Source of the DNA: a virus
Virus record (IMG/VR): IMGVR_UViG_3300031998_000511
Coordinates: 1 to 30,755 of that record
Reading direction: 5' to 3' (one strand)
DNA: 30,755 nucleotides
The position numbers and the translations under genes were made by a program. This document shows, in pieces, positions 1-30,755 of the stretch (its first letter is position 1; every line of letters starts with the position of its first letter). The notes beneath the pieces are model-generated. The model saw only the letters and a program-made list of their open reading frames with translations. It searched no databases and was not told where the DNA came from.

Positions 1-127
1 GAAAAGGGCCTTTGTAGCGTTGAACAGGTTTTAAGCCTTGTTCCCGTCAACATCTTCGCGAAGGCGGCTGGCGTGAGCCAAGAAAAGATGTTTGAAATGT
101 TCCCAGAATTCATTTGCGCGAAGGCAA
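1..127. repeat. Terminal direct repeat, copy 1. Exact duplicate of 30629..30755, indicating a circular or circularly permuted genome written out linearly.
   Basis: Bases 1..127 (gaaaagggcctttgtagcg...catttgcgcgaaggcaa) are identical to the last 127 bases of the window. The repeat lies inside an ORF and preserves its reading frame. Confidence 0.95.
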
Positions 128-833: not shown

Positions 834-860
834 CAACCTTCTATTATTGGAGCAAGGAAA

Positions 861-1226
861 ATGGATATTAAGTTGAGAAAGGATTTTTTGGCCGATGTTG
901 AAGCGGCTGTTGTAAGCGCTGAAAGAAAGCACCCGAAAATTTGCGATGACTTTTGCACACTTGAAAAAGACAGCGTAAAAGGAATGTTGGCTGAAACTAG
1001 AAGCGTAAACGATCTTTACGAAGATGCGGGAACGTCTGAATTTTATTTGGTTATTCGCGAAGAAGTGCTTGAAGCGCTGGAAGCCTTCATTGATGGCGAT
1101 TACAAACAATGCCTTAAGGAACTTTCGCAAGTTGCCGCAGTAGCAATTCGCGGTATGGAATTCGTTTACAGGCTGACGCCAGAAGCGAAGGCAAGCGAAA
1201 AGTTTAAAGGTGGCAAAAATGACTAG
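861..1226 (+). CDS. All-alpha protein, possibly MazG-like NTP pyrophosphohydrolase family (weak)
   Basis: I prefer ATG 861 with GGAG upstream. The track start at 810 lies inside the terminator. The motif EEVLEALEA...ELSQVAAVAIRGMEF resembles small phage MazG-like/dNTP-PPase helices. The family call is from memory only. Confidence 0.35.
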   Translation: MDIKLRKDFLADVEAAVVSAERKHPKICDDFCTLEKDSVKGMLAETRSVNDLYEDAGTSEFYLVIREEVLEALEAFIDGDYKQCLKELSQVAAVAIRGMEFVYRLTPEAKASEKFKGGKND

Positions 1227-2463: not shown

Positions 2464-2646
2464 TTGAAAATGGACGAGAAAAATACAAATTTCGTAGACA
2501 ACTACGAAAAATACAAATTTCGTAGGCAACTACGAAAAATAGATTGGGATTCTGTTATTAAGAACACTAAACCGAAAAAGGGGGTAATAGCTATGGCCTG
2601 TGGTGGCAAGAAAAGCGGCGGCAAGAAACCGCCCAAGAAAAAGTAA
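2464..2646 (+). CDS. Hypothetical Lys-rich small protein. Its coding status is uncertain because its 5' third is a tandem palindrome repeat.
   Basis: 60-aa ORF with GGGG 8 nt upstream and a C-terminus of GGKKSGGKKPPKKK. Codons 5..26 are encoded by the 28-bp tandem repeat. Confidence 0.35.
   Translation: MKMDEKNTNFVDNYEKYKFRRQLRKIDWDSVIKNTKPKKGVIAMACGGKKSGGKKPPKKK
2478..2541 (+). repeat. 28-bp tandem repeat (2.3 copies). Each full copy contains a 7-bp-arm palindrome.
   Basis: GAAAAATACAAATTTCGTAGACAACTAC (2478..2505), GAAAAATACAAATTTCGTAGGCAACTAC (2506..2533), then GAAAAATA. Each unit holds TTCGTAG-N4-CTACGAA. Confidence 0.9.
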
Positions 2647-3577: not shown

Positions 3578-3814
3578 ATGGACAGAAACGAACAGAAACA
3601 GGCAGAAGCCGTTGAAGAAAAGGACTTTTTGACCGCTATCGTAGACTTTTTTGAAAAGCTGGCCGAAAAGTACGAATTTGACGAGAACGAACAGGCGGAG
3701 TTCCGTGAGATCCTGTTTGGTGGCGAGAACGCCCGCAACGCTGGCCCGATGTATGACGCCGAAGCAGTTGAAATGGTAGAAGATACCGAAGAACCCGAAA
3801 CCGAAGAGGACTAG
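3578..3814 (+). CDS. Hypothetical acidic protein
   Basis: 78-aa ORF with AAAGGGG upstream. It is strongly Glu/Asp-rich. Confidence 0.5.
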   Translation: MDRNEQKQAEAVEEKDFLTAIVDFFEKLAEKYEFDENEQAEFREILFGGENARNAGPMYDAEAVEMVEDTEEPETEED

Positions 3815-3818
3815 CAAG

Positions 3819-4076
3819 ATGGCAAGGCCCAAGAAAGCACAAGCCGAAGCGCCGAAGGCCGAAGCAACGCCCGAAGCCGTTGAAGCTGAAAAGGCGCCAG
3901 AAGCGCCCGAAACGCCGAAGGATTCCAATGTACCGAGCGAGGAACAAAACGCCCTTGAAACGCGCGTTAAGGCCCTTGAAACGATCGTTGCGAACCTTGG
4001 CAAGCGGGTTGCAGAATTGGAACGGGTAACGGCTTACCGCAAGCCCGTAACCAGCGCCGATATTTTAGGCTTGTAA
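3819..4076 (+). CDS. Hypothetical protein with a PEA-rich N-terminus and a coiled-coil C-terminus
   Basis: 85-aa ORF with AGAGGA upstream and a heptad-like segment, ALETRVKALETIVANLGKRVAELE. Confidence 0.5.
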   Translation: MARPKKAQAEAPKAEATPEAVEAEKAPEAPETPKDSNVPSEEQNALETRVKALETIVANLGKRVAELERVTAYRKPVTSADILGL

Positions 4077-4087
4077 TAAATAAATAG

Positions 4088-4114
4088 CGTTCACGCGGAA
4101 CGCATTAAAACGCG
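4088..4114 (+). promoter_or_regulatory. Motif B copy 1: conserved hairpin CGTTC-ACGCG-GAACG plus an AAAACGCG tail
   Basis: The 15-mer CGTTCACGCGGAACG is identical to 9321..9335. Both copies are followed by (c/t)A..AAAACGCG and then an SD and an ATG. Confidence 0.45.
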
Positions 4115-4122
4115 AGGGGCAA

Positions 4123-4233
4123 ATGGAATATTTGCAAAACATAAATTTTCCGTTTTTTGGGAAATTTTCGGCTTTTAACGGCTGTTTTACTGAATGTTGC
4201 CCCCCCTTTCTAAAGGGGGTTTTTTGTGCCTAA
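4123..4233 (+). CDS. Possible 36-aa leader ORF upstream of, and overlapping, the small-terminase start
   Basis: GAGGGG lies 4 nt upstream of ATG 4123, and the translation is MEYLQNINFPFFGKFSAFNGCFTECCPPFLKGVFCA. The ORF reads through the 4200..4225 hairpin. It is below the track cutoff and may be non-coding. Confidence 0.2.
   Translation: MEYLQNINFPFFGKFSAFNGCFTECCPPFLKGVFCA
4200..4225 (+). terminator. Terminator-like hairpin plus T6. Its 3' arm is also the SD of the small-terminase gene.
   Basis: CCCCCTTT (4202..4209) pairs with AAAGGGGG (4212..4219), followed by tttttt (4220..4225) and then GTG 4226. Confidence 0.45.
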
Positions 4234-4681
4234 AGTCAAAAATCCCGTTGGGAACCCGAATATTGTAGAAGCGGGCAAGAAAACACAGATTACGCCCGAA
4301 ATCGCAAACGAATACAGGCTGAAAGGGCTTGCAATTCGGCGCCATTTGACAGAACAGAAGAAAGTCTGGGAAACACCCGCCGACCTACCGAAAGAACAGG
4401 CCGAATTTTTCGCTATGTTCGGATTTGTAGGGCCGCGCCAGAAGCTCATTGACAATAAATATAAATTCGCGTACAAGGCGCTTAAGAAAGCCTATGACAA
4501 AGGCGACCTAAACAACATTATCAAGTTTTTCCAGATGTTAGGCTTGGATTGGGCGGCAGACGCGGCGCAATTTATGGCGGCTTTCAACGCGACTATAAAC
4601 AAGCCCGAAGAAACCGACAAGAACGAACCTGTTGAATTTGTCTTTACGAGAGTTGGCGCCGATGCGGAAAATACAAATTGA
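4226..4681 (+). CDS. terS: Putative terminase small subunit (GTG start)
   Basis: The position directly upstream of and overlapping terL, the size (151 aa) and the basic N-terminus (PKVKNPVGNPNIVEAGKKT) are typical of small terminases. The call rests on position and motif only. Confidence 0.5.
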   Translation: MPKVKNPVGNPNIVEAGKKTQITPEIANEYRLKGLAIRRHLTEQKKVWETPADLPKEQAEFFAMFGFVGPRQKLIDNKYKFAYKALKKAYDKGDLNNIIKFFQMLGLDWAADAAQFMAAFNATINKPEETDKNEPVEFVFTRVGADAENTN

Positions 4682-15500: not shown

Positions 15501-16490
15501 ATGGCTAGAGTTTACAACAGCACGCGTTTAATGCTTGACCCTAACTTTATCCTTTCGGCGCGAAGGGCCGCAGACGAGCGCGAAGCCGCCGCGCGTGAAA
15601 GCCGCCGCGACATTGCAAAGGGCATTAACCAGACTTTGGGCGCCATTGGTGGCGGCATTGACTACGCATTGCGTAATATGGCAAAGAGCGACCGCCGCGA
15701 CATTATGGCGAACGCACCAGACATTGATGATCCCGAATACAAAGCCGCTGTTGAACGTTTCGTTGAAACGGGAGATTTAAGCGGAATTAACGCTTACCGA
15801 CAAATCAAGGAAGGCCGCGAGAGAATGGCCCGCGAGGAAGCCGCCCGCGAAAAGGAACTTGGAATTAGGAAGCGCGAAGCCGAAACGATGGCACAGAGAA
15901 CGGCGCTTGAAGATGCGAAAATCAAGGAAGGATTGGCCGAGAAAGCAAGGCTGGATTTACAGGAAGCCGAAATTGAATACAAAAACGCTATAACGGGCGC
16001 CGACAAGGAACGCGCAAAAGTCAACATCAACAGGGCATTGCTTGACCTTAAGAGCGCTGGCAAAGATGTTAGCGGATATGTGTTGCCAGACGAAAAGCCA
16101 AGCGGCGATATTGGCGGAGCTGGTACCGAAGGCGCCGCCGATGATGGCAAATCCATTAGGGCGCAAATAAACGATTTCAAAGCAAGGCTTAACGCTGGGT
16201 TCAACACGAAGGCGGAACAGGCCGCGTTTATTGAAGAAGTGAAGGCAAAGCGCGAAGGCTTGAAGGGCGCCGAAGTTGACGAATTTGTCAAGCTCATTGA
16301 CGATGCGCGAAAGGTAAAGCCCGAAGAAAAGAAGGCCGAAGAAAAGAAGGCGGCACAGAAAAAGAAAGCCGACCTTTACGCCGAAAAGAGCAAGAGCGCC
16401 GCCGAATTTTTCGTTTGGTTCAATGGCCTTAACGAAAAAGACCAAGCAGATTACGAAGCCGCATTTAAAGAAGTTTACGGGGGCAAATGA
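15501..16490 (+). CDS. Internal/ejection protein candidate (charged, coiled-coil)
   Basis: 329 aa, Ala/Glu/Lys/Arg-rich. The call is positional. Confidence 0.4.
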   Translation: MARVYNSTRLMLDPNFILSARRAADEREAAARESRRDIAKGINQTLGAIGGGIDYALRNMAKSDRRDIMANAPDIDDPEYKAAVERFVETGDLSGINAYRQIKEGRERMAREEAAREKELGIRKREAETMAQRTALEDAKIKEGLAEKARLDLQEAEIEYKNAITGADKERAKVNINRALLDLKSAGKDVSGYVLPDEKPSGDIGGAGTEGAADDGKSIRAQINDFKARLNAGFNTKAEQAAFIEEVKAKREGLKGAEVDEFVKLIDDARKVKPEEKKAEEKKAAQKKKADLYAEKSKSAAEFFVWFNGLNEKDQADYEAAFKEVYGGK

Positions 16491-20629: not shown

Positions 20630-20898
20630 AGGTCTTTTTAGAGCTTATAGCCAAGTATGGCGGCGCAAGCGGGCTTATTGCCGCGTTTTGCGTTTACATC
20701 GCTTGCGCCAACGGCGTAGACAAGGCGAAGGAAAGCACCCAGCAGAACTACAAGTTGTTTGAATACCGCGTTTTGACGCTGGAATCGCAACAGAAGGAAA
20801 CGGCGGCGCAATTCGGGGAGATACAGAAGGCGCTTTTAAACATCAATGTTTCTATTTCAAGGATTGAAACGCTTTTGGAAAAAGCGCCAAAAAACTAA
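20626..20898 (+). CDS. Small protein with one TM segment and a coiled coil (holin-like or tail-associated, undecided)
   Basis: A hydrophobic GGASGLIAAFCVYIACANGV segment followed by a heptad region. It overlaps the tailspike stop. Confidence 0.4.
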   Translation: MKVFLELIAKYGGASGLIAAFCVYIACANGVDKAKESTQQNYKLFEYRVLTLESQQKETAAQFGEIQKALLNINVSISRIETLLEKAPKN

Positions 20899-20902
20899 TT
20901 TA
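20889..20902 (+). promoter_or_regulatory. Motif A copy 5
   Basis: Exact AAAAAACTAATTTA spanning the stop TAA at 20896..20898, followed by AGGTT, 19 nt upstream of ATG 20922. Confidence 0.5.
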
Positions 20903-20921
20903 AGGTTAAAAGGGCTGTTTT

Positions 20922-21443: not shown

Positions 21444-21619
21444 GCGAAGAAAATATTTTGCTAGGTAGTCAATCGCCAGACGCCGATGTTTTGTTTTACA
21501 ATAAAGACAAGGCATATTATACGGGCAACTTGCAGTTGCGCGACAGCGGCGTAGATTATGACCTTGAATTTGACGACAACGGAACAATTGTAACAGCCAC
21601 CTACGAATATGTAAGGTAA
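21440..21619 (+). CDS. Possible 59-aa ORF (TTG start) filling the gap between the fibre genes
   Basis: GGGGGG lies 7-8 nt upstream. The TTG overlaps the upstream TGA (cTTGAg). The translation is LSEENILLGSQSPDADVLFYNKDKAYYTGNLQLRDSGVDYDLEFDDNGTIVTATYEYVR. It is below the track cutoff. Confidence 0.35.
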   Translation: MSEENILLGSQSPDADVLFYNKDKAYYTGNLQLRDSGVDYDLEFDDNGTIVTATYEYVR

Positions 21620-21631
21620 GGAAGGCACAAA

Positions 21632-24088
21632 ATGAGAATTAACGCTTTAGGCAATACCGCCACCGACTTTGCAAACGATGACTATATAGTCATTGACGGA
21701 ACCACAAACGGCTCACGAAAAATGGCTAAAAGCTCACTTTTAAAAGTGACAAAAGAAAACGCAATAAAAGAAACTATTTCTAATTCTTTTGATCCTTCTA
21801 GAATTGAAGCGACAAAATATTTAGCTGGAGAAAGCGTTGTATATGAAGATTCTGTATATACATTTTTGGTTGATCATTATGGAGCTTGGGATAGCTCAAA
21901 GGTTCAAAAAGTTTTATCTTTAGATACTAAAACTAAAGACCACGCAAAATTAAAAAGTTGTAAATCTAAAGGATTTAATTATACTAAAGTATCGTATAAT
22001 TTTGGAAATAGAGCTTGGGGAATAAATCAAAAAATAAACGGATTTGTAAAAAGGGTTTCAGCTGTTTTAAATCCTTATTCTTCTATAGATGTTGTTTTTG
22101 TATCTAAACTAACAAAAGACTATAAAAAAATTTCAACGCTTGTAAATTCAACTTCAACAATTAAAGAAATTTCTGTTGATGTTGATGCTTACATAAATGG
22201 ATATATAGGATTGTCGGAAACTAGCGGTTTTTCTGTACTTCCTTTAGTTAAAAGAAATGACGGGTTTTGCAATGGTTTTGCATTTGTTTATAGTACCCTT
22301 AATTTTGAAGAAACAAAAAATTGGACTCCAGCAATAAGCATTGATTATTATGACATAGAAGATTATATAGACAAACAAGAAACAACATATACAAATATTA
22401 TATCTTCTAACGCTTCGCCAAGCTATGCAATAAACCAATCGTTTTCTAGAGCCGTTACGCTTAATAAAAGTTATAAAGGCAAAGTAAAGAATGTTAGTGC
22501 ATTTGTAAAAGCAAATAGCGAAATTGCAGTAGTAGTTTGCAATGATAACGATTTTACACCTTATATTGTATTGACTAATTCAACAAGTTCTGATTCTTGG
22601 ATTAGTGCAGATTGTGATATTAAATTAGACGATGGCGATTTTATAGGTATAATGCCTTTTGGTGGAACAACAGATGTTTATTGTCAAAGAAACAATGTTA
22701 ATGGCGGCGCAAGGTTCTATTTCACTAATACAGGCGTTTTTATAAATGAAAGCGATGTTTGGACAATAGCATTAAGATGTGTAATTGAAAGTAGCGTTAA
22801 AATTAGTGAAGAAAACGCAATTGAGATACCGAAAAATATTATTGTTCCTATTTATGGCCAATCATTAAGCGTTGGTGCTGACGCTACCCCGCAATTAAAA
22901 TCCGCTGGAATAATTAACGGAAATTCAATGAATGGTAAAGTAATTTGTACGTCTTTAAATATGACAACGCTTAATAGGTACGAATTGACTTTAATAAATG
23001 AATATGACCAAGAAACACCCGCAACAGGTTGTGTTTTGGGAATTTTTGAAGAATTAAGCAGGCTTACAAATATTCCAAAAAATTCTAAAGTGTGGGAAAC
23101 AATTAAGGTATTTGCTGTTTCTTGCGGCCAAGGATCTTCTTCGCTTGAGTCTTTGGCAGATCCAGACGGGACGCTTTATTCTGGTCTTATTAATGCCGTT
23201 ACCAGACTAAATACGTTAATAACTGACATTGGAGAAACAGCATTTATTCCAGCTCTCGTATGGATTCAAGGCGAAACAAATATGCGCTATGGCGTTACTT
23301 CGCCTTCTTATTACGCAGATGACTACAAAAATAAATTGTCTAATTTAGTTGCATCTATTAACACTGATTTTAAATCAATAACAGGACAGCTAGAAGATAT
23401 TAAGTGCGTTTGCTATCAAACTTCATCGCAGGGGTATATTAACGGGCAATATTACCAGCTAGATTGGAATTTTGTAAATATTCCTAAATTGTCAAAAGTT
23501 CCAATGGAGCAAATGCTTGCTGTAAGAGATTTAAGCAATTTTGTTGCAAGTGCTCCAGCATATACCATTGAACATAACGAAGATGTTGTTGGAAAAGCAA
23601 ATATTCATTTAACAAATGTTGGATCTAGGCATTTGGGGTATTTTTGCGGTAGCTCTATAGCTAATATCATATATGGTAAAAATCAAAAATGCGGAATTTT
23701 GCCAATATCTTACAATGTTGTTGGTAATGACATTACAATTAAATTTTTAGTTGAAAATGGAACATTGACAACAGATTCTTCTTTTGTAAAACGAATTTCC
23801 AATTATGGATTTTCTGTTATGACAAGTGGGAATATCGATATAATTACAAGTGTTGATATTTTTGAAGATTCTGTTGAAATTAAGTGCAGTCAAAGCCCTG
23901 TTGGCGCATTGTTAAGTTATGGTTGTATTGGAACAGATAACTACGATGGAAAAACAAAGGGCGCTAGAGGAAACTTGTGTTCAACATATTACAATTTTGT
24001 AGAAATTGAAAACAAAAAAATTGTCCAAAAAGAATTCTGTTATTCTTTCTATTGCGTTTTAGCGGCTGGGCAAAACAATATAGAATAA
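21632..24088 (+). CDS. Second receptor-binding fibre with a SASA/SGNH-type carbohydrate esterase domain
   Basis: 818 aa. The C-terminal half carries IVPIYGQSLSVGADA, LVWIQGETNMRYG and ANIHLTNVGSRHLG. These match the remembered sialate O-acetylesterase (SASA) landmarks GQSN, W.QGE.D and a His-containing block. Composition is markedly AT-rich from about 21730 onward. Confidence 0.6.
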   Translation: MRINALGNTATDFANDDYIVIDGTTNGSRKMAKSSLLKVTKENAIKETISNSFDPSRIEATKYLAGESVVYEDSVYTFLVDHYGAWDSSKVQKVLSLDTKTKDHAKLKSCKSKGFNYTKVSYNFGNRAWGINQKINGFVKRVSAVLNPYSSIDVVFVSKLTKDYKKISTLVNSTSTIKEISVDVDAYINGYIGLSETSGFSVLPLVKRNDGFCNGFAFVYSTLNFEETKNWTPAISIDYYDIEDYIDKQETTYTNIISSNASPSYAINQSFSRAVTLNKSYKGKVKNVSAFVKANSEIAVVVCNDNDFTPYIVLTNSTSSDSWISADCDIKLDDGDFIGIMPFGGTTDVYCQRNNVNGGARFYFTNTGVFINESDVWTIALRCVIESSVKISEENAIEIPKNIIVPIYGQSLSVGADATPQLKSAGIINGNSMNGKVICTSLNMTTLNRYELTLINEYDQETPATGCVLGIFEELSRLTNIPKNSKVWETIKVFAVSCGQGSSSLESLADPDGTLYSGLINAVTRLNTLITDIGETAFIPALVWIQGETNMRYGVTSPSYYADDYKNKLSNLVASINTDFKSITGQLEDIKCVCYQTSSQGYINGQYYQLDWNFVNIPKLSKVPMEQMLAVRDLSNFVASAPAYTIEHNEDVVGKANIHLTNVGSRHLGYFCGSSIANIIYGKNQKCGILPISYNVVGNDITIKFLVENGTLTTDSSFVKRISNYGFSVMTSGNIDIITSVDIFEDSVEIKCSQSPVGALLSYGCIGTDNYDGKTKGARGNLCSTYYNFVEIENKKIVQKEFCYSFYCVLAAGQNNIE

Positions 24089-24120
24089 CCAATAGTTTAG
24101 CAATAGCTTAACGATAGCGA

Positions 24121-24200
24121 AGCAATCTTGACTTATTGTCTATATGACTATTTGTCTATATTGCTTTGCTTTTTCTTTTGGTTCTTTTCTTTTGTAACTT
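24121..24200 (+). repeat. Intergenic element paralogous to 9161..9240, containing two direct TTGTCTATAT copies
   Basis: See 9161..9240. TTGTCTATAT occurs at 24136..24145 and 24152..24161. Confidence 0.85.
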
Positions 24201-24209
24201 TTTATTTAC

Positions 24210-24237
24210 TTGCTTTGCCTTCCAAAAAGGCTATATT
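24210..24237 (+). promoter_or_regulatory. Sigma70-type promoter candidate (TTGCTT-16-TATATT) for the early operon
   Basis: TTGCTT at 24210..24215, a 16-nt spacer, then TATATT at 24232..24237. The hexamers are the same as in the promoters at 27391 and 29541. Confidence 0.55.
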
Positions 24238-24291
24238 TTAGGTGCTGGACATTACATCTTGTTTATTCTTCCTTTTGTAGTTTACGGGGGC

Positions 24292-24329
24292 GGGCGGCGT
24301 TGAGATAGTCCAGCATTTCGGCGCCGCCC
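24292..24329 (+). promoter_or_regulatory. GC-rich hairpin in the early-operon leader, with a GTCCAGC site in its loop
   Basis: GGGCGGCG (24292..24299) pairs with CGCCGCCC (24322..24329) around a 22-nt loop, followed by ttcccttttc. Confidence 0.3.
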
Positions 24330-24357
24330 TTCCCTTTTCAAAAAACAAGGCTGGACA

Positions 24358-24963
24358 ATGTTTTTTCACTTTGATTTCTACCCCGCCGACCTTATGGCGG
24401 TTATAGCTGGACGCACAGCGGAGGACGCTGGCGAGATTGTCCAGCAATGGCTTATTGGCCTAATATCCAATTCAACAGATGGCGTAAAGGATCGCAAGGC
24501 GCGCGAAAGCGTGGAAAAAATGCTTGACAATTGCCGCCGCCGTTCCGATATATACAGGGCCAACGGGTTGAAGCGCAATAAAGGCCCCGTAAAGCCCGAA
24601 AATCCCGAACCCAAGGAAACACCCGAACCGCAGAAGAAAGCGGCCCCGAAGCCGCCCAAATCGCCGCTATTCGGCTTTGCGCTGGTAAACGTTACCGAAA
24701 AGGAAAAGGCCGACTTGGAAAAGCGTTTTGGCGCCAAGCTACAGCGTATGGCCGATATATTGCAGAACTACAAGGAAAGCACAGGCAAGAAATACAAGAG
24801 CGATGCGGCGGCGTTGCGCGGCTGGGTTGCCGACAAGGTGGCCGAACAGGAACGCCGACAGGGTGCAAAGGGTTTCAAGGAACAGGAACGCGCGCGCGAT
24901 GCACAGAACGCCGCCGAAATGCTGACAGACGAACAGAAACGTTATTACGGGCTGGACAATTAA
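24358..24963 (+). CDS. Replisome-organiser / replication-initiation-like protein (DUF1376-like N-terminus)
   Basis: The N-terminus is MFFHFDFYPADLMAVIAGRTAEDAGEIVQQW. The C-terminal VTEKEKADLEKRFGAKLQRMADILQNYKESTGKKYKSDAAALRGWV resembles the remembered phage replisome-organiser tail (LT.eE...L...fG...i..L..Y....GkkYkSd.a.i..W). Confidence 0.45.
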   Translation: MFFHFDFYPADLMAVIAGRTAEDAGEIVQQWLIGLISNSTDGVKDRKARESVEKMLDNCRRRSDIYRANGLKRNKGPVKPENPEPKETPEPQKKAAPKPPKSPLFGFALVNVTEKEKADLEKRFGAKLQRMADILQNYKESTGKKYKSDAAALRGWVADKVAEQERRQGAKGFKEQERARDAQNAAEMLTDEQKRYYGLDN

Positions 24964-24964
24964 G

Positions 24965-25459
24965 ATGGAACAGGAACAGGTAACGAAGATGGCGGCGCAG
25001 ATCCGCCGCGAAGTAATCTATTATTTGCTCAAAAACGAATTCTTGGCGAACCGCCAGAGCATACCCGAAAAGGAAACATTGGCGTATGAAATTGAGCGCA
25101 TAAGCGCCATACCTTGCCAGACGAAGCTGTTGAAGCGGCTTTTTGAAGAAGCGAGGGAATACCGAGAAGAACGCGGCTTTTACCCAAGCGCAGTAACGAT
25201 TGCGGATTTGGAAGCGGCTTGGAAGTACAAGCCCGTTGGCTACGTTTGCAACCAAAATGTAAAATTCGGTTTCCTTCCTTGGAAAAAGGACAAGGAATTG
25301 CGGGCGCTTCCATCCGTTAAAGCGTTGCTTGAAGGCTACAGGGTTCTTTTGAGGAAAGGCGAGAAAATACCATTGCCAGCGCCCGAAGGCGAAAGCGAAG
25401 CGAAGAAGATAGCGGGAATTGTGGCGAACCATCTAACGCAAGGGGCTAAAAATGCTTGA
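24965..25459 (+). CDS. Hypothetical early protein
   Basis: 164-aa ORF whose start is preceded by GGCTGGACAATTAAG. Confidence 0.5.
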   Translation: MEQEQVTKMAAQIRREVIYYLLKNEFLANRQSIPEKETLAYEIERISAIPCQTKLLKRLFEEAREYREERGFYPSAVTIADLEAAWKYKPVGYVCNQNVKFGFLPWKKDKELRALPSVKALLEGYRVLLRKGEKIPLPAPEGESEAKKIAGIVANHLTQGAKNA

Positions 25460-25907
25460 AAATACGGACACTATTAGCTTTTTGCCGAATATAGACGATC
25501 TTGAATACGAAGGGCGCCTTGTCGCTACGGATTGGGCGCCAGCTAACCTTGACGAAAACGGAATGTTTCGCGGTGCTGTAAGACACTACGAAGCGGGTAG
25601 CTATCTAAAAACGTACCTTGAAATGAAGATTTGCAGATACGGGCTTTTTGTCCGCTATCAATTTTCTTACGGCCATAAGACCTACGGAACGGCGCGCCCG
25701 TTTGCGGTTGATTGTAGCGGTTCTTGTCACAGGGGCAACGCGCCCGAATTTATCGCGGACGGGATTAGAAACGAACTTTGGTACAGGCTTGTAGACGATG
25801 GCAACTTGGACAACGAAGGCCGCAAGGCGATAATAAAGCTTTATGACAGCAAGATAAAGGAACAGGTAACAAGGGATTTGCGAGGGCCGGACAATGGGAA
25901 AATTTGA
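25452..25907 (+). CDS. Hypothetical early protein
   Basis: 151-aa ORF with AAGGGG upstream. No family is recognised. Confidence 0.5.
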   Translation: MLENTDTISFLPNIDDLEYEGRLVATDWAPANLDENGMFRGAVRHYEAGSYLKTYLEMKICRYGLFVRYQFSYGHKTYGTARPFAVDCSGSCHRGNAPEFIADGIRNELWYRLVDDGNLDNEGRKAIIKLYDSKIKEQVTRDLRGPDNGKI

Positions 25908-26502
25908 AGATGATTTGAAGCGCGTTAGGCTTGAAGAAAAGGCAAAGCCCTTTGATTGGTTTAGCTTTCTTGAAAATGACGCAAACAAAGCTATAAGAAA
26001 GTTTATACAGGCAAACAAACGAAAAATCGTTATCAATTGGAACGCGAGAACCTACAGGGAATTTAGGCGCATTTTTGATTTTGTCAATGAGCTTGTAACA
26101 ATTCCAGATCCGCAAACAACTTTCTATTGCGTTGCGCCGAAGTTCAAAGTAAAGGAATTTAAGGTATATAAGCGGCGTTTCGGTTTCGGCCATTGCAAGT
26201 TCTATATAAATCTTGAATGGCCTTTCGTGATTTACTACAGGCGCGTTGTAGATGTGCTGGCGGACAACGAAATAAAGTCAAGCGAATTTGCGAAGATGGA
26301 AGGCGCCAAGCATAACGAAATATACTGCAAGGAATATCCTTTTGAAAAGGAATTTTCTTTTGAGTTTGCCCAATGCGGAAAGAACGCCAAATGGATATTT
26401 AACGAAATCTATTTAAGGTTTTTGAACGCGAGATTTTACGCGATTAGCCAGCAGATGAATAACCCGCCGAAAAGTGTAGAAGAATTTACAGAGCAGAATT
26501 AG
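25894..26502 (+). CDS. Hypothetical early protein
   Basis: 202-aa ORF whose start is embedded in GGCCGGACAATG. Confidence 0.5.
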   Translation: MGKFEDDLKRVRLEEKAKPFDWFSFLENDANKAIRKFIQANKRKIVINWNARTYREFRRIFDFVNELVTIPDPQTTFYCVAPKFKVKEFKVYKRRFGFGHCKFYINLEWPFVIYYRRVVDVLADNEIKSSEFAKMEGAKHNEIYCKEYPFEKEFSFEFAQCGKNAKWIFNEIYLRFLNARFYAISQQMNNPPKSVEEFTEQN

Positions 26503-26553
26503 CGAATTTGAGCGAAAAACAGCAATTTCAAGAAAAATTATTGTATATTATGA
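26500..26553 (+). repeat. Direct repeat, left copy, bracketing the methyltransferase cassette. It includes a TATATT -10-like block.
   Basis: TAGCGAATTTGAGCGAAAAACAGCAATTTCAAGAAAAATTA plus TTGTATATTATGA. It begins at the TAG stop of the upstream gene. TATATT is at 26544..26549. Confidence 0.9.
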
Positions 26554-26604
26554 ATAACGGCGGCGATGTTGCCGCGTAATGCCCCGAAGGGCAAAGGCTG
26601 GACA

Positions 26605-27333
26605 ATGCAGATTAACGGAAAAGTACATTGCTTCTTTGAGCAAAGCGGCACTTTCAAGAACGAATTTATCAAGTTGGGCATCCCTGCCGAAGATTACGAC
26701 ATACAAAATAATTTCGGGCAGACCGACCACGTTGTAGACCTTTTTGAAAACATACAAAATGCTTACGAGGGGGGGGCAAGCGTGTTTGACAACATAACAA
26801 AAGAAGATTTGATTGTTGCGTTTTTCCCTTGTATTTATTTTTGTTGTATGTCGCAAATGGCTTTTACGCTTGGTTATACGAATTATAGAAAAATGACTGA
26901 TGCGGAAAAAATACAAGCAATAATTAAACGTGAAGAAAATCGTACTATCTTTTATAAGATTATGTTAAAGCTTATTGGAGTTTGCTATAAAAGAGGGTTA
27001 AGGCTTGTAATTGAAAACCCTTGGAGCGAACAAACTTATTTAAAAGCAAATGCGCCAAAAGCGCCTGATATTGTAGATATTGACAGAACCAGGCGCGGAG
27101 ATTGTATGGTAAAACCAACCGCATATTGGTTTTATAATTGCTCACCAACAAACGGCTTTACCAACCAACAATACAGGGGGAAGCCGAAAACAATTTTAGA
27201 CACAAAGGGAAGTTCTGTTGCTGGTGTATGTTCCGAAGATCGTAGTATGATTTTGCCCGATTACGCTAGAAATTGGATTTGTGATTTTGTTTTAGGGAAA
27301 AAACAAAATATTGGTCAACTTTCACTTTTTTAG
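26605..27333 (+). CDS. Divergent DNA (cytosine-5) methyltransferase-like protein
   Basis: I prefer ATG 26605, which is embedded in AAAGGCTGGACAATG. The motif order is FFEQSGTF (motif I-like), FFPCIYF (Pro-Cys, motif IV-like), VIENPWS (ENV-like) and DRTRRGD (motif VIII-like). It is short (242 aa) and degenerate. Confidence 0.45.
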   Translation: MQINGKVHCFFEQSGTFKNEFIKLGIPAEDYDIQNNFGQTDHVVDLFENIQNAYEGGASVFDNITKEDLIVAFFPCIYFCCMSQMAFTLGYTNYRKMTDAEKIQAIIKREENRTIFYKIMLKLIGVCYKRGLRLVIENPWSEQTYLKANAPKAPDIVDIDRTRRGDCMVKPTAYWFYNCSPTNGFTNQQYRGKPKTILDTKGSSVAGVCSEDRSMILPDYARNWICDFVLGKKQNIGQLSLF

Positions 27334-27423
27334 CGAATTTGAGCGAAAAACGGCAATTTCAAGAAAAATTAAAATTTTTGTTAAAAAGTATTGCTTTTAA
27401 CAAAAAATTATTGTATATTATGA
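27331..27423 (+). repeat. Direct repeat, right copy, carrying a 39-bp insertion with an inverted repeat and the promoter TTGCTT-17-TATATT
   Basis: 27331..27371 matches 26500..26540 with one A/G difference, and 27411..27423 matches 26541..26553. The insert has the inverted repeat TTGTTAAAAAG/CTTTTAACAA (27378..27403) overlapping -35 TTGCTT (27391..27396). The -10 TATATT is at 27414..27419. Confidence 0.9.
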
Positions 27424-27464
27424 TTGTCGGGCAATGGGGCTTGACATAACAAAGGCTGGACGCT

Positions 27465-27803
27465 ATGAAAAAACAAAACAAAACCTATCTTTCTTTGGCA
27501 GAACAGGGCATTTCCAAAGCTTGGGATAAAATAGTTATCTTCAATGAAAGAAGAATTGAAAAAATGCAAATGGTGGTTTACTACCAAAACAAGCCGTTCT
27601 ACTATTGGCCAGTAAAAGACGCTTTTGATGTTGACGACTTGAGATTCAGGCTTGAAGTTATGATTGATCTTTACAATAGGTCAACGTTAAACCTGCGCAA
27701 GATAAAAAAGGCTATTACCCGCTATTTTGTTTCGGGTGACGCTGGCGAAAGGGTAATTACCTACAGGCGCGGCGGCGTTTTCTTCCCTTCTACGGGGGTG
27801 TAA
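27465..27803 (+). CDS. Hypothetical early protein
   Basis: 112-aa ORF whose start is preceded by AAAGGCTGGACGCT. Confidence 0.5.
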   Translation: MKKQNKTYLSLAEQGISKAWDKIVIFNERRIEKMQMVVYYQNKPFYYWPVKDAFDVDDLRFRLEVMIDLYNRSTLNLRKIKKAITRYFVSGDAGERVITYRRGGVFFPSTGV

Positions 27804-27804
27804 T

Positions 27805-28896
27805 ATGAAATACAAATTTACAGAAGAAACAAAAGTTTATTTTGGCCGAACTTTTCATAGAATTGTATGCGTTACGGCTTTCGCAAACGTGGCCGCTGGA
27901 GAACTTGGCGGCTGGATTGAAAAAGAACAAAATTTAGATCAATGCGGCAATGCGTGGGTCTACGGCAATGCGGAGGTCTGCGGCAATGCGAAGGTCTACG
28001 GCGATGCGAAGGTCTACGGCAATGCGGAGGTCTACGGCGATGCGAAGGTCTACGGCGATGCGAAGGTCTGCGGCGATGCGGAGGTCTGCGGCAATGCGGA
28101 GGTCTACGGCGATGCGAAGGTCTGCGGCAATGCGGAGGTCTGCGGCAATGCGAAGGTCTACGGCGATGCGGAGGTCTGCGGCAATGCGAAGGTCTACGGC
28201 AATGCGAAGGTCTACGGCGATGCGGAGGTCTGCGGCAATGCGTGGGTCTACGGCAATGCGAAGGTCTACGGCGATGCGGAGGTCTACGGCAATGCGTGGG
28301 TCTACGGCAATGCGAAGGTCTGCGGCAATGCGGAGGTCTGCGGCGATGCGGAGGTCTACGGCGATGCGGAGGTCTGCGGCGATGCGGAGGTCTACGGCAA
28401 TGCGAAGGTCTGCGGCAATGCGAAGGTCTACGGCGATGCGGAGGTCTGCGGCAATGCGAAGGTCTACGGCAATGCGAAGGTCTACGGCGATGCGGAGGTC
28501 TGCGGCAATGCGGAGGTCTACTGCAATGCGAAGGTCTGCGGCAATGCGAAGGTCTACGGCGATGCGGAGGTCTGCGGCAATGCGAAGGTCTACGGCAATG
28601 CGAAGGTCTACGGCGATGCGGAGGTCTGCGGCAATGCGGAGGTCTACGGCAATGCGAAGGTCTACGGCGATGCGGATTATATCGTATTGAAAAATAATTG
28701 GAGTTCTGGCCGATATTTTACCTATACGCTATCTAACAAGATGTGGAAAGTTGGTTGCTTCTTCGGAACAGGCGAAGAATTGATAAAAAAAGCGTATGCA
28801 GATAGCGAAATTTCGGGCAGATGTTACGAAGCTTCCGTCAAGTATGTTGAAGAACTGATTAGAATAAAGGAAGGTTTAAAATGCATAACGGAATAA
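27805..28896 (+). CDS. Hexapeptide-repeat (predicted beta-helix) protein with short unique N- and C-terminal domains
   Basis: 363 aa. The N-terminus (...FHRIVCVTAFANVAAGELGGWIEKEQNLDQ) is followed by 40 units of G-[ND]-A-[KEW]-V-[YC] and then a roughly 70-aa C-terminal domain. GGGGG lies upstream of the ATG. Confidence 0.8.
   Translation: MKYKFTEETKVYFGRTFHRIVCVTAFANVAAGELGGWIEKEQNLDQCGNAWVYGNAEVCGNAKVYGDAKVYGNAEVYGDAKVYGDAKVCGDAEVCGNAEVYGDAKVCGNAEVCGNAKVYGDAEVCGNAKVYGNAKVYGDAEVCGNAWVYGNAKVYGDAEVYGNAWVYGNAKVCGNAEVCGDAEVYGDAEVCGDAEVYGNAKVCGNAKVYGDAEVCGNAKVYGNAKVYGDAEVCGNAEVYCNAKVCGNAKVYGDAEVCGNAKVYGNAKVYGDAEVCGNAEVYGNAKVYGDADYIVLKNNWSSGRYFTYTLSNKMWKVGCFFGTGEELIKKAYADSEISGRCYEASVKYVEELIRIKEGLKCITE
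27946..28677 (+). repeat. 18-bp tandem repeat, about 40.7 units (GGC RAT GCG RRG GTC TRC)
   Basis: Read unit by unit. Variation is confined to four positions plus three TGG codons and one TGC for GGC. 28396..28521 and 28522..28647 form a 126-bp tandem duplication that differs at one base. Confidence 0.95.
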
Positions 28897-28970
28897 ACGT
28901 TTTCGCTGGCTTGGCTTGTGTTTTCCTGTACGGCGCTTTGCTTTGGCTTTGCGCCTTGATTGAGGGGTAA
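28881..28970 (+). CDS. Possible 29-aa hydrophobic peptide
   Basis: ATG 28881 follows AAGGAAGG, and the translation is MHNGINVFAGLACVFLYGALLWLCALIEG. It fills the gap to 28974 and is below the track cutoff. Confidence 0.3.
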   Translation: MHNGINVFAGLACVFLYGALLWLCALIEG

Positions 28971-28973
28971 AAT

Positions 28974-29342
28974 ATGGAACTAAAAGTATATCATTGCAAC
29001 GAATGGCACAACGAACATACAGAATTTTACCTAAAGAACGAAGCAGACAAGTTGATTGAAAGAAAAGACAAGGCTTTTGAATATGCACAAGCCGTTATTT
29101 TGGTTGATATTGGAATTATCAAGAAGCAGAAAAGAAAGCGTTGCTTGGCTATGGCTGAATGGTGCGAATCTACGGCGCTGTGGTGTTATCAAGCGGCTAA
29201 CACACTACCCATAGGTTTTCACGCAACATTATACGGAAAGCCTGTAATGATAGAGCCAGACCGCTTATTCAAGCGGTTTGTGCTTCTAAAAAATTGGAGC
29301 AAGCGTTGGCGTAAACTTGCCGAGAAATTTAAAAAGGGGTAA
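28974..29342 (+). CDS. Hypothetical early protein
   Basis: 122-aa ORF with GAGGGG upstream. Confidence 0.5.
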   Translation: MELKVYHCNEWHNEHTEFYLKNEADKLIERKDKAFEYAQAVILVDIGIIKKQKRKRCLAMAEWCESTALWCYQAANTLPIGFHATLYGKPVMIEPDRLFKRFVLLKNWSKRWRKLAEKFKKG

Positions 29343-29345
29343 ACT

Positions 29346-29534
29346 ATGGAAAGTACAATTGAAATTAGGCACAATGGCGCCTGTGTCAAGATCACTTGCA
29401 AGAATGGCCGTTGCTATTACAACACCAGCGGCCAGCCTTCAAAGGAACTTGTCAAGGTTATTCAATACTTGGAACAGGTACGCGCGCCGATGGCTACCGC
29501 TTCCAAAATGGTTATTTCCGAAATGTTAAAATAA
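29346..29534 (+). CDS. Hypothetical small protein
   Basis: 62-aa ORF with AAGGGG upstream. Confidence 0.45.
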   Translation: MESTIEIRHNGACVKITCKNGRCYYNTSGQPSKELVKVIQYLEQVRAPMATASKMVISEMLK

Positions 29535-29540
29535 TTTTTC

Positions 29541-29569
29541 TTGCATTATCCAAAATGTTAAAGTATATT
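29541..29569 (+). promoter_or_regulatory. Sigma70-type promoter candidate (TTGCAT-17-TATATT) for the recombination operon
   Basis: TTGCAT at 29541..29546, a 17-nt spacer, then TATATT at 29564..29569, 38 nt upstream of the erf ATG. Confidence 0.6.
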
Positions 29570-29607
29570 TCACTTAACAACGCCCAAAAGGGCAAAGGCT
29601 GGACAAT

Positions 29608-30222
29608 ATGAATATCTACGAAAAACTTAACGCGGCCCGTTTGCAGATTGCAGAAAAGGGCCTTTCCAAGACAGGCAACAACACTTTCGCGGGGTTCAAG
29701 TATTTTGAGCTTTCCGAAATCTTGCCCGTTGTCAACAAGGTCAACAACGAATTGAATCTGTTTAGCGCGTTTTCTTTCTTGCGCGATACGGCAACGCTGG
29801 AGATCGTGAACGCGGAGAAGCCTGAAGAAAAGGTTACGTTCTCGTTTGCTTACTCCCCCGATGGCGCGAAGCTTAAGGCTTGCCACCAGATACAGAACGA
29901 AGGCGCCGTACAGACCTACATAAAGCGCTATCTTTACCAGAACGCCTACGAAATCGCCGAAGCAGACCAGCTTGACGCGTCCGTTGGACGCGATGAACCG
30001 AAGCCGACCAGCAAGCCCACAAAGCCCGCGAAGGCTAGCGAAGCGCCGAAGGTTTCCAAGAAATCGTTTGCGGAAACTATCGCCGAAGTTGCGAAAGACC
30101 ACCAAGAAGAACTTTACGAAGCCTTGGGCAAGAACGGCTACGAAAGCGTTGACGAAATTATTGAAAGACAGGCGCAAGTTGCCTTCTATTCCGACCTTAT
30201 GAACATTATTCACAGCAAGTAA
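29608..30222 (+). CDS. erf: ERF-family single-strand annealing protein (recombinase)
   Basis: NIYEKLNAARLQI...KTGNNTFAGFKYFELSEILPVVNKV... and GAVQTYIKRYLYQNAYEI match the remembered ERF landmarks (ykY..l.dil..v and G...TY.rRY.l). It is followed by a low-complexity Pro/Lys tail and sits in an operon with ssb. Confidence 0.7.
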   Translation: MNIYEKLNAARLQIAEKGLSKTGNNTFAGFKYFELSEILPVVNKVNNELNLFSAFSFLRDTATLEIVNAEKPEEKVTFSFAYSPDGAKLKACHQIQNEGAVQTYIKRYLYQNAYEIAEADQLDASVGRDEPKPTSKPTKPAKASEAPKVSKKSFAETIAEVAKDHQEELYEALGKNGYESVDEIIERQAQVAFYSDLMNIIHSK

Positions 30223-30250
30223 ACAAACATAACTACAAAGGGGGCCAAAT

Positions 30251-30755
30251 ATGGCTAAAGAAGTTGCAATTTTTGACGAGAACGATTTTAAGCAGATAGT
30301 TTTCACACCAGCCGCGCAAGATGCGTACAATTTCGCATTGCAGAACGCGGGCTTGGAAATGGAAGCTGGTAGCGGCGAAGAAGCCGACTTTATCCAGCAC
30401 CGAAACAACAAAAGCGGCTGGCGCGATCTTTGGGAGCTTAAAACGCTTCTTGAAAAGGGCGCCGCTTCCATCAAGGAAGTTGTAAAACACACTTTCAATA
30501 TTGGCGGCTGGGAAAGCTTGCCCGAAGCGAAAGAAAACAACGGCGTAAAGATTAGCTGGAGCAAGCAAAGCTATACTTACGAATACCAAGTTGACGGGTG
30601 CGGCGCTTCCATTATGGCGGCTTTACAGGAAAAGGGCCTTTGTAGCGTTGAACAGGTTTTAAGCCTTGTTCCCGTCAACATCTTCGCGAAGGCGGCTGGC
30701 GTGAGCCAAGAAAAGATGTTTGAAATGTTCCCAGAATTCATTTGCGCGAAGGCAA
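30251..30755 (+). CDS. 5' part of the junction-spanning hypothetical CDS. It runs off the window end and continues at base 128 after removal of the duplicated 127 bp.
   Basis: ATG 30251 has AAAGGGGG upstream, and there is no stop before the window end. It is not in the ORF track because it is open-ended. Confidence 0.7.
   Translation, partial: MAKEVAIFDENDFKQIVFTPAAQDAYNFALQNAGLEMEAGSGEEADFIQHRNNKSGWRDLWELKTLLEKGAASIKEVVKHTFNIGGWESLPEAKENNGVKISWSKQSYTYEYQVDGCGASIMAALQEKGLCSVEQVLSLVPVNIFAKAAGVSQEKMFEMFPEFICAKA
30629..30755. repeat. Terminal direct repeat, copy 2
   Basis: Identical to 1..127. Confidence 0.95.

Follow-up and report, generated by a model that had tools for sequence, protein, structure and literature searches.

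A hexapeptide-repeat gene of a P22-like phage belongs to the large YdcK-like family of phages and prophages

Given that one open reading frame in the window (the whole analysed stretch of 30,755 nucleotides, IMG/VR virus record IMGVR_UViG_3300031998_000511) consists largely of near-identical 18-bp units, we asked whether this array is translated, to which proteins its product is related, how it came to be so uniform and what the product might do. The locus comprises the following features:

27465..27803, + strand: upstream ORF of 112 aa, no function assigned (ORF list; adjoins the repeat gene in relatives)
27805..28896, + strand: YdcK-like beta-solenoid gene, complete ORF of 363 aa (ORF list, Pfam, PHROG)
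27805..27945, + strand: N-terminal cap domain (residues 1-47), conserved and with homology to the YdcK N-terminus
27946..28677, + strand: 18-bp array of 40 full units and a 12-bp partial unit, G-[N/D]-A-[K/E/W]-V-[Y/C] (TRF, in-frame reading)
28396..28647, + strand: tandem duplication of a 126-bp, 7-unit block (copies 28396..28521 and 28522..28647)
28678..28893, + strand: conserved C-terminal domain of ~72 aa (AF2 model, family alignments)
28881..28970, + strand: small hydrophobic ORF of 29 aa, MHNGINVFAGLACVFLYGALLWLCALIEG (read from the sequence; overlaps the 3' end of the repeat gene)

The predicted protein matched the Pfam family PF18836 (B_solenoid_ydck) at 3.3e-21, with 73.7 bits against a gathering cut-off of 30, as well as PHROG 7964 (5.9e-142, the best stretch spanning positions 72-267 of a 269-position profile) and PHROG 5070 (6.3e-121), both of which are annotated as unknown function. 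Against the PDB, residues 18-287 aligned by sequence with residues 27-296 of Salmonella YdcK (E 4.1e-18), and the score for the NCBIfam YdcK equivalog model NF040481 (112.6) fell far below its cut-off of 350. Related clusters (50% identity) numbered 15,441 at E <= 1e-3 and were mostly from phages and prophages; hosts of the family include Firmicutes, Bacteroidota, Proteobacteria, Spirochaetes, Saccharibacteria and others. More than 7,000 matches have the same three-part architecture found here, namely an N-terminal cap, a hexapeptide array and a C-terminal domain with a WSSGR...GCF.G motif. The ORF at 27805..28896 is thereby shown to be a real gene of a P22-like phage that codes for protein and, as judged from these sequence comparisons, a member of an already catalogued, very large YdcK-like family of phages and prophages rather than an orphan. 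An earlier note on this DNA had read it as a beta-solenoid gene with small unique end domains, which is supported, and had mentioned shorter, more diverged relatives without assigned function in phages and prophages, which do exist.

Both ends of the protein are conserved. The N-terminal cap (AF2 pLDDT ~90) matched 2pig in Foldseek with 35% identity over 65 columns at a probability of 1.0, and its columns G35-G36 and N43 are invariant in the family alignments. The C-terminal domain was modelled as four short strands and two helices (pLDDT 87-96) and carries the motif NxWSSGRYFTYT...W.VGCF.GTxEEL, of which K, R, T and G-C-F-x-G are invariant columns in the family alignment; across alignments A1 and A2 the invariant columns are G36, N43, G317, K, R, T and G-C-F-x-G. 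No Pfam family covers this domain, and searches of the PDB gave nothing by sequence and only insignificant WWE-like matches by fold (E about 2), while BFVD returned only homologs without annotation. It also exists as a stand-alone domain, as seen from separate matches and PHROG 20532.

The start codon of the gene lies 1 nt past the stop of the 112-aa upstream ORF, and a Shine-Dalgarno-like motif (GGGGGT) immediately precedes the ATG. The two genes are probably translationally coupled. The same upstream ORF is kept beside the beta-solenoid gene in three related contigs (L005, L006 and L187). In the first of these, a homolog of the 29-aa hydrophobic ORF sits upstream of the beta-solenoid gene and not downstream, implying that the gene uses different slots in related phages.

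The repeat itself is highly regular. TRF reported an 18-bp array at 27945..28674 (40.6 copies, score 1061), and the reading-frame register gives 40 full units at 27946..28665 followed by GGCGATGCGGAT, in agreement with the 40 near-identical hexapeptide units at 27946..28677 described earlier. The consensus 18-mer, allowing up to 3 mismatches, was matched 40 times against 0.04 expected, with no further copy in the window outside the array. There are 10 distinct types of full unit, and variation is confined to five columns: 4 (A/G), 10 (A/G/T), 11 (A/G), 17 (A/G) and column 1, where a single G>T change in unit 33 turns GGC into TGC. A column-by-column count also recovered the A/G switches and the three TGG codons (units 1, 17 and 20) that had been noted before. 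Changes in each of the five variable columns alter the amino acid, and the 40 units show no synonymous variation at all. Array GC is 62.6% compared with 45.6% for the window, and the codons GTC and GAG, fixed within the array, are rare in the rest of the genome. Variation had been called combinatorial at three residues; three residues do vary, but N, K and Y are associated with one another, as are D, E and C (Fisher p 0.02-0.05), so that the sites are not independent and the term applies only loosely.

Higher-order repetition is superimposed on the units. The tandem duplication of the 126-bp block, as noted before, holds with one mismatch between the copies (G28396 compared with T28522), and it yields the longest exact internal repeat, of 125 bp; a 107-bp block is present three times. 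By unit shuffling the array has a significant lag-3 (54-bp) periodicity (p about 0.001-0.002), which persists when the duplicated block is removed, and the proposed super-repeat GNAKVY-GNAKVY-GDAEVC does occur three times, but its interpretation as one turn of a helix is not supported: lag 3 was best in just 27% of 107 family arrays, which is about the chance level, and we therefore rejected the periodicity as a family-wide structural signal. It more likely reflects the block-duplication history of this particular array. All three forward frames are open throughout the array, as had been observed.

For the fold, YdcK was the best Foldseek match for both models and is listed among the left-handed beta-helix representatives (PMC4671585), and we infer that the array would form a left-handed beta-helix, each turn being made of three hexapeptides (18 residues), a reading that was proposed before and appears consistent with the YdcK homology (2F9C/2PIG). 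AF2 gave a period-6 strand pattern over the array with a pLDDT of only 40-76 and a pTM of 0.42, while the end domains were modelled confidently (pLDDT 85-96). In such a helix V and A would face inward, G and N/D would lie at the corner, and positions 4 (K/E/W) and 6 (Y/C) would be exposed. At 3 units per turn the array would make about 13.6 turns and measure roughly 65 Å, so that the long rod pictured earlier looks overstated.

We then compared arrays across the family. Flanks that are 98-100% identical carry arrays of 27 and 21, 28 and 21, or 39 and 24 units (a difference of 6-15), which bears out the idea that length can change without loss of frame. Within any one array each position has a single fixed codon, but the codons chosen for Gly, Ala and Val differ by lineage (GGC/GGA/GGT, GCG/GCC/GCA and GTC/GTG/GTT). 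Together with the zero synonymous variation and the rapid change in length, these lineage-specific fixed codons point to protein-level selection with concerted evolution, as far as sequence comparison can tell. The comparison shows arrays being reshaped by in-frame slippage or unequal recombination, combined with homogenisation, and copy number and the exposed residues at position 4 change far more quickly than the end domains do. Across the family, position 4 is the hypervariable site. The closest relative (L187), with a C-terminal domain 93% identical, has an array of R/Q/L/W type with 19-20 units, and that of Acidovorax phage AP1 is of R/Q/W type. The present array, with its block duplications of 126 bp and 107 bp, is a recently expanded and highly homogenised example, and it belongs to the upper tail for length and uniformity without being unique. 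It had been called extreme, which is overstated, given that 31-43 in-register units are also seen in other members, one of which has an equal unit identity. Three close relatives (L005, L006 and P0123) have arrays of 1-3 units. These are possibly collapsed k=31 assemblies, but if they are real, the length of the helix would hardly matter. A natural short variant of 131 aa (P0122) exists as well.

How far the unit count itself can be trusted is a separate matter, as both count and order are those of a short-read metagenome assembly. At its ends the window carries an exact direct repeat of 127 bp, the typical signature of a circular contig from a k=127 de Bruijn assembly. Because the 125-bp internal repeat is close to this k, the exact unit count and order are not trustworthy. 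The gene could thus be real while its 40-unit length, unit order and 126-bp duplication follow a wrong or arbitrary de Bruijn path, the true array being shorter, longer or reordered. We regard this as unlikely on balance, yet it is the alternative that deserves to be taken most seriously. The longest internal repeat lies at the resolution limit and hundreds of shorter k-mers are non-unique; the one base that separates the 126-bp copies is also the sole deviation from the invariant Gly codon; the contigs of L180 and L196 break at related arrays, and in Logan contigs (k=31) such arrays look collapsed or frameshifted; and the exact protein has no record elsewhere, the best metagenome relatives being 76-78% identical with arrays that are broken or different. 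Against an artefact, no 126-mer occurs twice within the array, which makes the contig self-consistent at k=127, and arrays of 31-43 in-register units occur in independent contigs. Long contigs in Spirochaetia and Verrucomicrobia MAGs reach 33-53 units in total, albeit in more diverged arrays of a different architecture, and Sfi19 has 18 units.

Neighbours of the gene in the window include a replisome organiser, a DNA methyltransferase and Erf (Pfam, PHROG), and a terminator-like hairpin (24292..24329) follows the tail-fibre gene. The Sfi19 homolog, orf229, directly follows cro, and the Liberibacter SC1 homolog belongs to the run of genes that follows the C2 repressor and adjoins an antirepressor; genes near other loci encode RecT, SSB, a methyltransferase, Erf, dUTPase, VRR-NUC or Gp157. 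A non-structural (early, recombination or replication) location is thus seen here and in at least 10 other loci. From these gene contents, the gene sits in a non-structural recombination/replication module, in keeping with the early-region location claimed by the earlier note, and its position suggests early expression. There was no fixed partner gene among 381 neighbour clusters over 80 loci, the commonest of which was present in 13. PADLOC gave no match for the gene and five neighbours, and Rfam returned nothing at gathering thresholds over the window.

Taken as a whole, the best explanation is a YdcK-type family gene of a P22-like phage, encoding a putative left-handed helix whose array has evolved by in-frame slippage or unequal recombination and which would serve as a non-enzymatic scaffold (a probability of roughly 0.8). 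For the activity itself we tentatively infer, with low confidence, a cytoplasmic non-enzymatic scaffold or binding protein expressed from the non-structural module. Any specific activity would be carried by the conserved end domains, and the variable helix might be a tolerant spacer or else a variable surface for binding some host or defence factor. Our literature search found no experiment or paper on the function of the YdcK-like phage family and confirmed only the fold class of YdcK.

A more specific version of the scaffold reading is doubtful. In this version the protein is a counter-defence or host-takeover scaffold, in which the position-4 ladder and the helix length are hypervariable through in-frame slippage and array swapping, and the constant N- and C-terminal domains act as effector or anchor. 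If true, the gene would hold a 'contingency array' at the level of the protein, engaged in an arms race against a host factor, and the 40-unit K/E array here and the 20-unit R/Q/L array of its close relative would be alternative specificities on the same chassis.

It is rather improbable that the protein is a bactofilin-like cytoskeletal polymer, in which beta-helices would join at their ends to build filaments, either to organise the replication of the phage or to disturb the shape of the host cell. Residues 211-289 do match Pfam Bactofilin (PF04519) above its cut-off (42.5 bits against 27.9, 7.9e-11), homologs carry the name 'polymer-forming cytoskeletal protein' in their sources, which implies such a role, and at 3 units per turn the net charges of the three faces (-10, -9 and +5) could favour lateral association. 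However, the match falls on the same repeats that score higher with the YdcK repeat model, the source names look automatic, and the literature yielded no polymerisation experiment. The core ends of bactofilins are generally described as exposed for polymerisation, whereas here folded, conserved domains (pLDDT about 90) cap both ends of the helix.

The suggestion of a nucleic-acid mimic fares poorly. On this account the charged helix would imitate DNA and soak up host nucleases in an anti-restriction or anti-defence role, comparable to pentapeptide-repeat proteins, Ocr or ArdA, and it could draw on the non-structural module, the orphan DNA methyltransferase near the gene (in the window, L001, L005 and L007), the net acidic array and the rapid array turnover that an arms race would predict. 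Yet the net charge of the array is only -14 (-0.35 per unit), the family median is -4 (-0.29 per unit), some arrays are net positive, and the arrays of the closest relative and of phage AP1 are built from R/Q/L and R/Q/W. A regular acidic stripe is not conserved, and we consider a DNA mimic improbable.

Very unlikely, too, is a hexapeptide-repeat acyltransferase, as annotations of YdcK ('putative transferase') and several phage homologs would have it. YdcK is listed in the trimeric LpxA-like superfamily, homologs carry names such as 'putative acyltransferase', and there are weak matches to Hexapep, cysE and LpxD, but Hexapep (PF00132) reached 16.5 bits against a cut-off of 27, and cysE, LpxD and other NCBIfam enzyme models scored far under theirs. 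No inserted loops that could hold an active site interrupt the repeat, and the single His of the 363-aa protein lies in the N-terminal domain with none in the array, which we counted as not enzyme-like. Array length in relatives ranges from a few units to 43. We know of no demonstration of enzymatic activity for YdcK.

That the repeat acts as DNA, whether as iterons of a replication origin or as the target of adenine-directed retroelement diversification, is scarcely credible: the array does lie within a replication module, four of the five adenines of the consensus unit are variable with every change but one at A, and a megablast search of window positions 20000-30755 against phage records returned only a 383-bp part of the array, shared with Acidovorax phage AP1 at 86.7% DNA identity, but iterons were rejected because lineages encode the retained peptide with different codons at its conserved positions, the array is flanked in frame by conserved protein domains, and a diversity-generating retroelement was rejected given no reverse-transcriptase match among the 20 larger ORFs covered by PHROG scans (10 of these also by Pfam), no template copy of the unit in the window and changes that are almost only A>G (N/D, K/E, Y/C), unlike the A>N spectrum of such elements.

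The gene itself is therefore not of a new kind, and we view it as an unusually clean case of one of the largest phage families without an assigned function. It offers a testable design rule, in which end domains are constant, the helix is rapidly resized and homogenised, and a single exposed position is hypervariable. There are also implications for annotation. The names 'polymer-forming cytoskeletal protein', 'glycerol kinase' and 'transferase' look like errors, as do CRISPR-spacer features placed over such arrays and the wrong-strand CDS in phage AP1, and repeat counts of such genes in short-read metagenomes should not be trusted.

Among known systems, pentapeptide-repeat proteins (Qnr, MfpA), Ocr and ArdA are an analogy only, being early genes whose products bind host DNA enzymes with a regular solenoid or charged surface; the repeats here are hexapeptides and not the pentapeptides of Qnr and MfpA, net charge in the family is low and inconsistent, and no homology to any of these proteins was detected. 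Bactofilins (PF04519) share a beta-helical core of hexapeptide-like repeats but have disordered tails where the present protein has folded caps, and its repeats fit the YdcK model better. Handedness differs as well: bactofilin helices are generally given as right-handed, and YdcK is listed as left-handed. Like VNTR and contingency-type loci, the array has a unit that is a multiple of 3, fast copy-number change and homogenised units, but the on/off switching of contingency loci is absent, because every slippage event preserves the frame. YdcK of Salmonella and E. coli (2F9C, 2PIG) has the N-terminal cap and the type of repeat in common with the phage protein, though its own repeats are irregular and its gene is chromosomal, while the array here is regular and phage-borne and the C-terminal domain is phage-specific and unrelated to YdcK. 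The closest known counterparts are genes of PHROG 7964 and 5070, such as Streptococcus phage Sfi19 orf229, Ruminococcus phage phiRM10 gp34 and Bacillus phage Bp8p-C gp209, which share the full-length architecture, an overall identity of 40-60% and an early or non-structural location. The sequenced phages examined have about 18-21 units and a unit DNA identity of 0.80-0.86, compared with 40 in-register units and an identity of 0.90 here.

TRF placed an 18-bp array of 40.6 copies (score 1061) at 27945..28674 of the window. The in-frame register resolved it into units with the consensus peptide G-[N/D]-A-[K/E/W]-V-[Y/C], bearing out the 40-unit hexapeptide array described in an earlier, sequence-only note.

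Target gene and array.
27805..28896, + strand: target ORF, 363 aa (ORF list)
27946..28665, + strand: in-register array, 40 full units, then a 12-bp partial unit GGCGATGCGGAT

Searching the window with the consensus 18-mer (≤3 mismatches) returned 40 matches against 0.04 expected and no further copy outside the array. Only 10 unit types occur among the 40 full units, which vary at column 4 (A/G; N/D), columns 10 and 11 (A/G/T and A/G; K/E/W) and column 17 (A/G; Y/C), with a single G>T at column 1 of unit 33; all variable columns alter the amino acid, and the units show no synonymous variation. The earlier description of this variation as combinatorial is roughly right, but the three sites are statistically associated (N/K/Y versus D/E/C). 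Its 126-bp tandem duplication with one mismatch was confirmed, and a 107-bp block is present in three copies. All three forward frames are open throughout the array, as the earlier note reported.

The target gene is a family member and not an orphan.

Database matches of the target protein.
Pfam, YdcK beta-solenoid repeat PF18836: 3.3e-21
Pfam, Bactofilin: 7.9e-11
PHROGs 7964 and 5070, both labelled 'unknown function': 5.9e-142 and 6.3e-121
NCBIfam, YdcK_fam: 112.6 bits, below the cut-off of 350
PDB, Salmonella YdcK 2F9C/2PIG, residues 18-287: 4.1e-18

YdcK is a listed left-handed beta-helix representative of the trimeric LpxA-like superfamily (PMC4671585). A word-indexed search yielded at least 7,132 homologous matches, related clusters at 50% identity numbered 15,441 with E≤1e-3 (including 1,533 with E≤1e-30), and 84 GenBank phage records carry family members, while the exact 363-aa protein of the window is on record nowhere else. 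Matches in genome contigs (Streptococcus, Avibacterium, Bartonella, Prevotella, Lachnospiraceae, Saccharibacteria, Spirochaetia, Verrucomicrobia and others) are probably mostly prophages. Family members in Vibrio phages 1.034.X, 1.139.B and 1.034.O, Streptococcus Javan phages and Aeromonas phage Aer_P220 bear GenBank features such as 'CRISPR spacer', 'glycerol kinase', 'MFS-type transporter', 'putative transferase' and 'polymer-forming cytoskeletal protein', which are probably mis-annotations driven by the repeats. In Acidovorax phage AP1 (L010, OM049504.1), the deposited CDS (3832..4392, minus) lies over the array on the wrong strand; the true member is a plus-strand ORF (3736..4614, 292 aa, 21 units), and over 383 bp its array is 86.7% identical in DNA to that of the window, although the hosts are unrelated. 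Spirochaetia and Verrucomicrobia MAG contigs (L094, L104, L105, L109) encode cellular proteins of 440-870 aa with 33-53 YdcK-type units, which follow an 'HRHPNGGGWV' motif resembling the phage N-cap and are joined, N- or C-terminally, to unrelated sequence. The repeat module has also been put to use outside phages.

The array had been called extreme, and for length and uniformity combined it does fall in the upper tail, but it is not unique. Among 268 top-scoring proteins the longest in-register run was 27 units (32 under a looser pattern), yet runs of 43 (L020), 36, 35, 34 and 33 units occur in IMG/VR contigs and one of 43 in a metagenome contig (L186); the large Spirochaetia and Verrucomicrobia MAG contigs reach their 33-53 units in total, with more divergence and a different architecture. 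Mean pairwise unit identity was 0.903 in the window, against a sampled range of 0.59-0.91 and an equal best of 0.908 (24 units).

Unit number and order are given as assembled. An exact 127-bp direct repeat at both window ends (1..127 = 30629..30755) points to a circular contig from de Bruijn assembly at k=127; the window probably holds this phage contig, of about 30.6 kb, in full. The longest exact repeat within the array is 125 bp. All 126-mers of the array are unique and many shorter k-mers are repeated: the array is self-consistent at k=127 yet sits right at the limit of what can be resolved. A single base distinguishes the two 126-bp copies, and the invariant Gly codon is broken at that base alone. 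Related arrays stop at contig edges (L180, L196) or, in k=31 Logan contigs, show up as 1-3 units or include a frame-shifting unit 5 bp short. The latter, at about 860..990 of Logan contigs L007-L009 (GGCGATGCG|CTAC), leaves overlapping ORFs of 77 and 84 aa and recurs in contigs of a single study that derive from several runs. It represents either a genuine frameshifted pseudogene or a join introduced by assembly at k=31. Because of the 125-bp repeat relative to k=127, these broken relatives and the lack of a second record of the protein, unit number and order are provisional.

Family alignments show a constant architecture of N-cap, variable array and C-domain. The N-terminal cap (~47 aa) is conserved, with invariant G-G and N columns, as is the C-terminal domain (~72 aa; NxWSSGRYFTWT...W.VGCF.GTxEEL). 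AlphaFold predicted both end domains confidently (pLDDT 85-96), whether within the full-length protein or within a naturally short variant of 131 aa. In fold searches the N-cap superposed on YdcK (35% identity, probability 1.0); the C-domain had no PDB match by fold or by sequence, and in BFVD it matched homologs only, all without annotation. Over the array, where the earlier note expected a regular beta-helix, the model showed a strict period-6 strand pattern, but at low confidence (pLDDT 40-76). The evidence supports a beta-solenoid, and from homology to YdcK alone we infer its handedness and units per turn: the helix would be left-handed, with three units per turn, ~13.6 turns and a length of roughly 65 Å, V and A facing inward and positions 4 and 6 outward. 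The computed net charges of the three faces would then be -10, -9 and +5, alongside ladders of Tyr and Cys. The 54-bp super-repeat had been taken as one such turn. Its periodicity in the array is significant (p about 0.001-0.002 by unit shuffling), but across the family a lag of 3 is not preferred (it ranks first in only 27% of arrays), and the pattern is best read as the duplication history of this array; the 7-unit duplication itself moves the three-unit register.

Each array fixes one codon per position, and the choice differs across lineages.

Codons of individual arrays.
Window: Gly GGC, Ala GCG, Val GTC
L002 (homolog locus): Gly GGA/GGG, Ala GCC, Val GTT
Streptococcus phage Sfi19 (orf229): Gly GGT, Ala GCA, Val GTC
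L001 (homolog locus): Gly GGC, Ala GCG, Val GTG
L187 (closest relative found): Gly GGC, Ala GCG, Val GTG

Codons that are fixed within arrays and differ between lineages are a signature of peptide-level selection and concerted evolution, not of DNA-level conservation. GTC and GAG are scarce elsewhere in the window (9% of Val and 12% of Glu codons), and the end domains of the target gene use GAA and mostly GTT; the codon usage of the array fits amplification of one founder unit. Pairs of loci with flanking domains 98-100% identical in DNA differ in unit count (27 versus 21, 28 versus 21, 39 versus 24) or have arrays that are equally long and differ in sequence. The C-domain of L187 matches that of the window with 93% protein and 92% DNA identity; the L187 array, of 19-20 units, has R/Q/L/W/M at position 4 versus K/E/W in the window. 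Family-wide, G predominates at position 1, N or D occupies position 2, V or I position 5 and Y, C, S or F position 6; residues at position 4 are hypervariable, and A at position 3 was imposed by the unit search pattern.

The genome in the window is that of a P22-like phage, and its genes all share one strand.

Genes in the window.
4.6-14.5 kb: terminase, portal and head-closure genes
21632..24088 (21.6-24.1 kb): tail fibre gene
at 24358: replisome organiser, non-structural module, after a hairpin
at 26566: DNA methyltransferase, non-structural module
between methyltransferase and target gene: 112-aa ORF without assigned role
at 29608: Erf, downstream of the target gene

The hairpin (24292..24329; GC-rich 15-bp stem, T-rich tail), which separates the tail-fibre gene from the start of the non-structural module, is probably the late-operon terminator. 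GC falls to 31-35% at 22001..24000, in the part encoding the C-terminal two thirds of the tail fibre, versus 45.6% for the whole window; the region matches SASA (sialate O-acetylesterase-like) weakly and also PHROG 4201 (tail fibre), and it resembles a receptor-binding or esterase module exchanged by horizontal transfer. A 28-bp tandem repeat in the non-structural module (2478..2541, 2.3 copies, 97% match, GAAAAATACAAATTTCGTAGACAACTAC) might serve as an iteron, an origin or an operator, and a 15-bp repeat has 3.5 copies at 16317..16372.

Homologs lie in comparable settings, with RecT, SSB and methyltransferase in L001, with Erf, SSB and NinG upstream and MazG downstream in L002, and with methyltransferase, Erf and SSB in L005 and L007. 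In Sfi19 the homolog directly follows cro and precedes the Gam and Sak4 genes, in Liberibacter phage SC1 it lies in a gene run after the C2 repressor, beside an antirepressor, and in Bacillus phage Bp8p-C it is close to the end of the deposited record. Neighbours across 80 IMG/VR loci fell into 381 clusters, the commonest in no more than 13 loci, with XRE repressor, dUTPase, Erf, Gp157, VRR-NUC and a DnaD-like protein recognisable. Tandem paralogs are adjacent in 8/80 of these loci (e.g., L054, 7623..8714), and two or three whole genes are fused head-to-tail in the homologous proteins P0053 (435 aa) and P0015 (629 aa), where every copy opens with its own N-cap and array and ends in the family C-domain (P0053) or a different short tail (P0015). 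Given these diverse neighbours, adjacent paralogs and whole-gene fusions, the target gene behaves as a stand-alone accessory cassette. A conserved hydrophobic ORF (28881..28970, 29-30 aa; ...YGA[LM]LWLCAL[IL]EG) follows the beta-solenoid gene in the window and precedes it in L005 (2388..2480), and a 122-aa ORF of the window (28974..29342) is absent from L005; this relocation and additional ORF reflect local cassette shuffling.

Our best guess, held with low confidence, is that the product, encoded in the non-structural module, would serve in the cytoplasm as a scaffold or binding protein without enzymatic activity, in which the conserved end domains may be the acting parts and the helix a tolerant, fast-changing spacer or surface. 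A Bactofilin-like polymer would accord with a Pfam score exceeding the cut-off, although folded domains cap both ends. An acyltransferase is disfavoured by a Hexapep match under the cut-off and an array without loops or His, and a DNA mimic by charge that is weak and inconsistent among relatives. Function as DNA-level iterons conflicts with codons that vary between lineages, and retroelement diversification with the lack of a reverse-transcriptase match among the ORFs scanned and of a template copy in the window. With its membership, architecture, context and mode of array evolution established, the target gene is a real feature and an additional member of a known, functionally uncharacterised family; it stands out chiefly as a very clean, recently expanded example, and it points to a huge phage family lacking assigned function.
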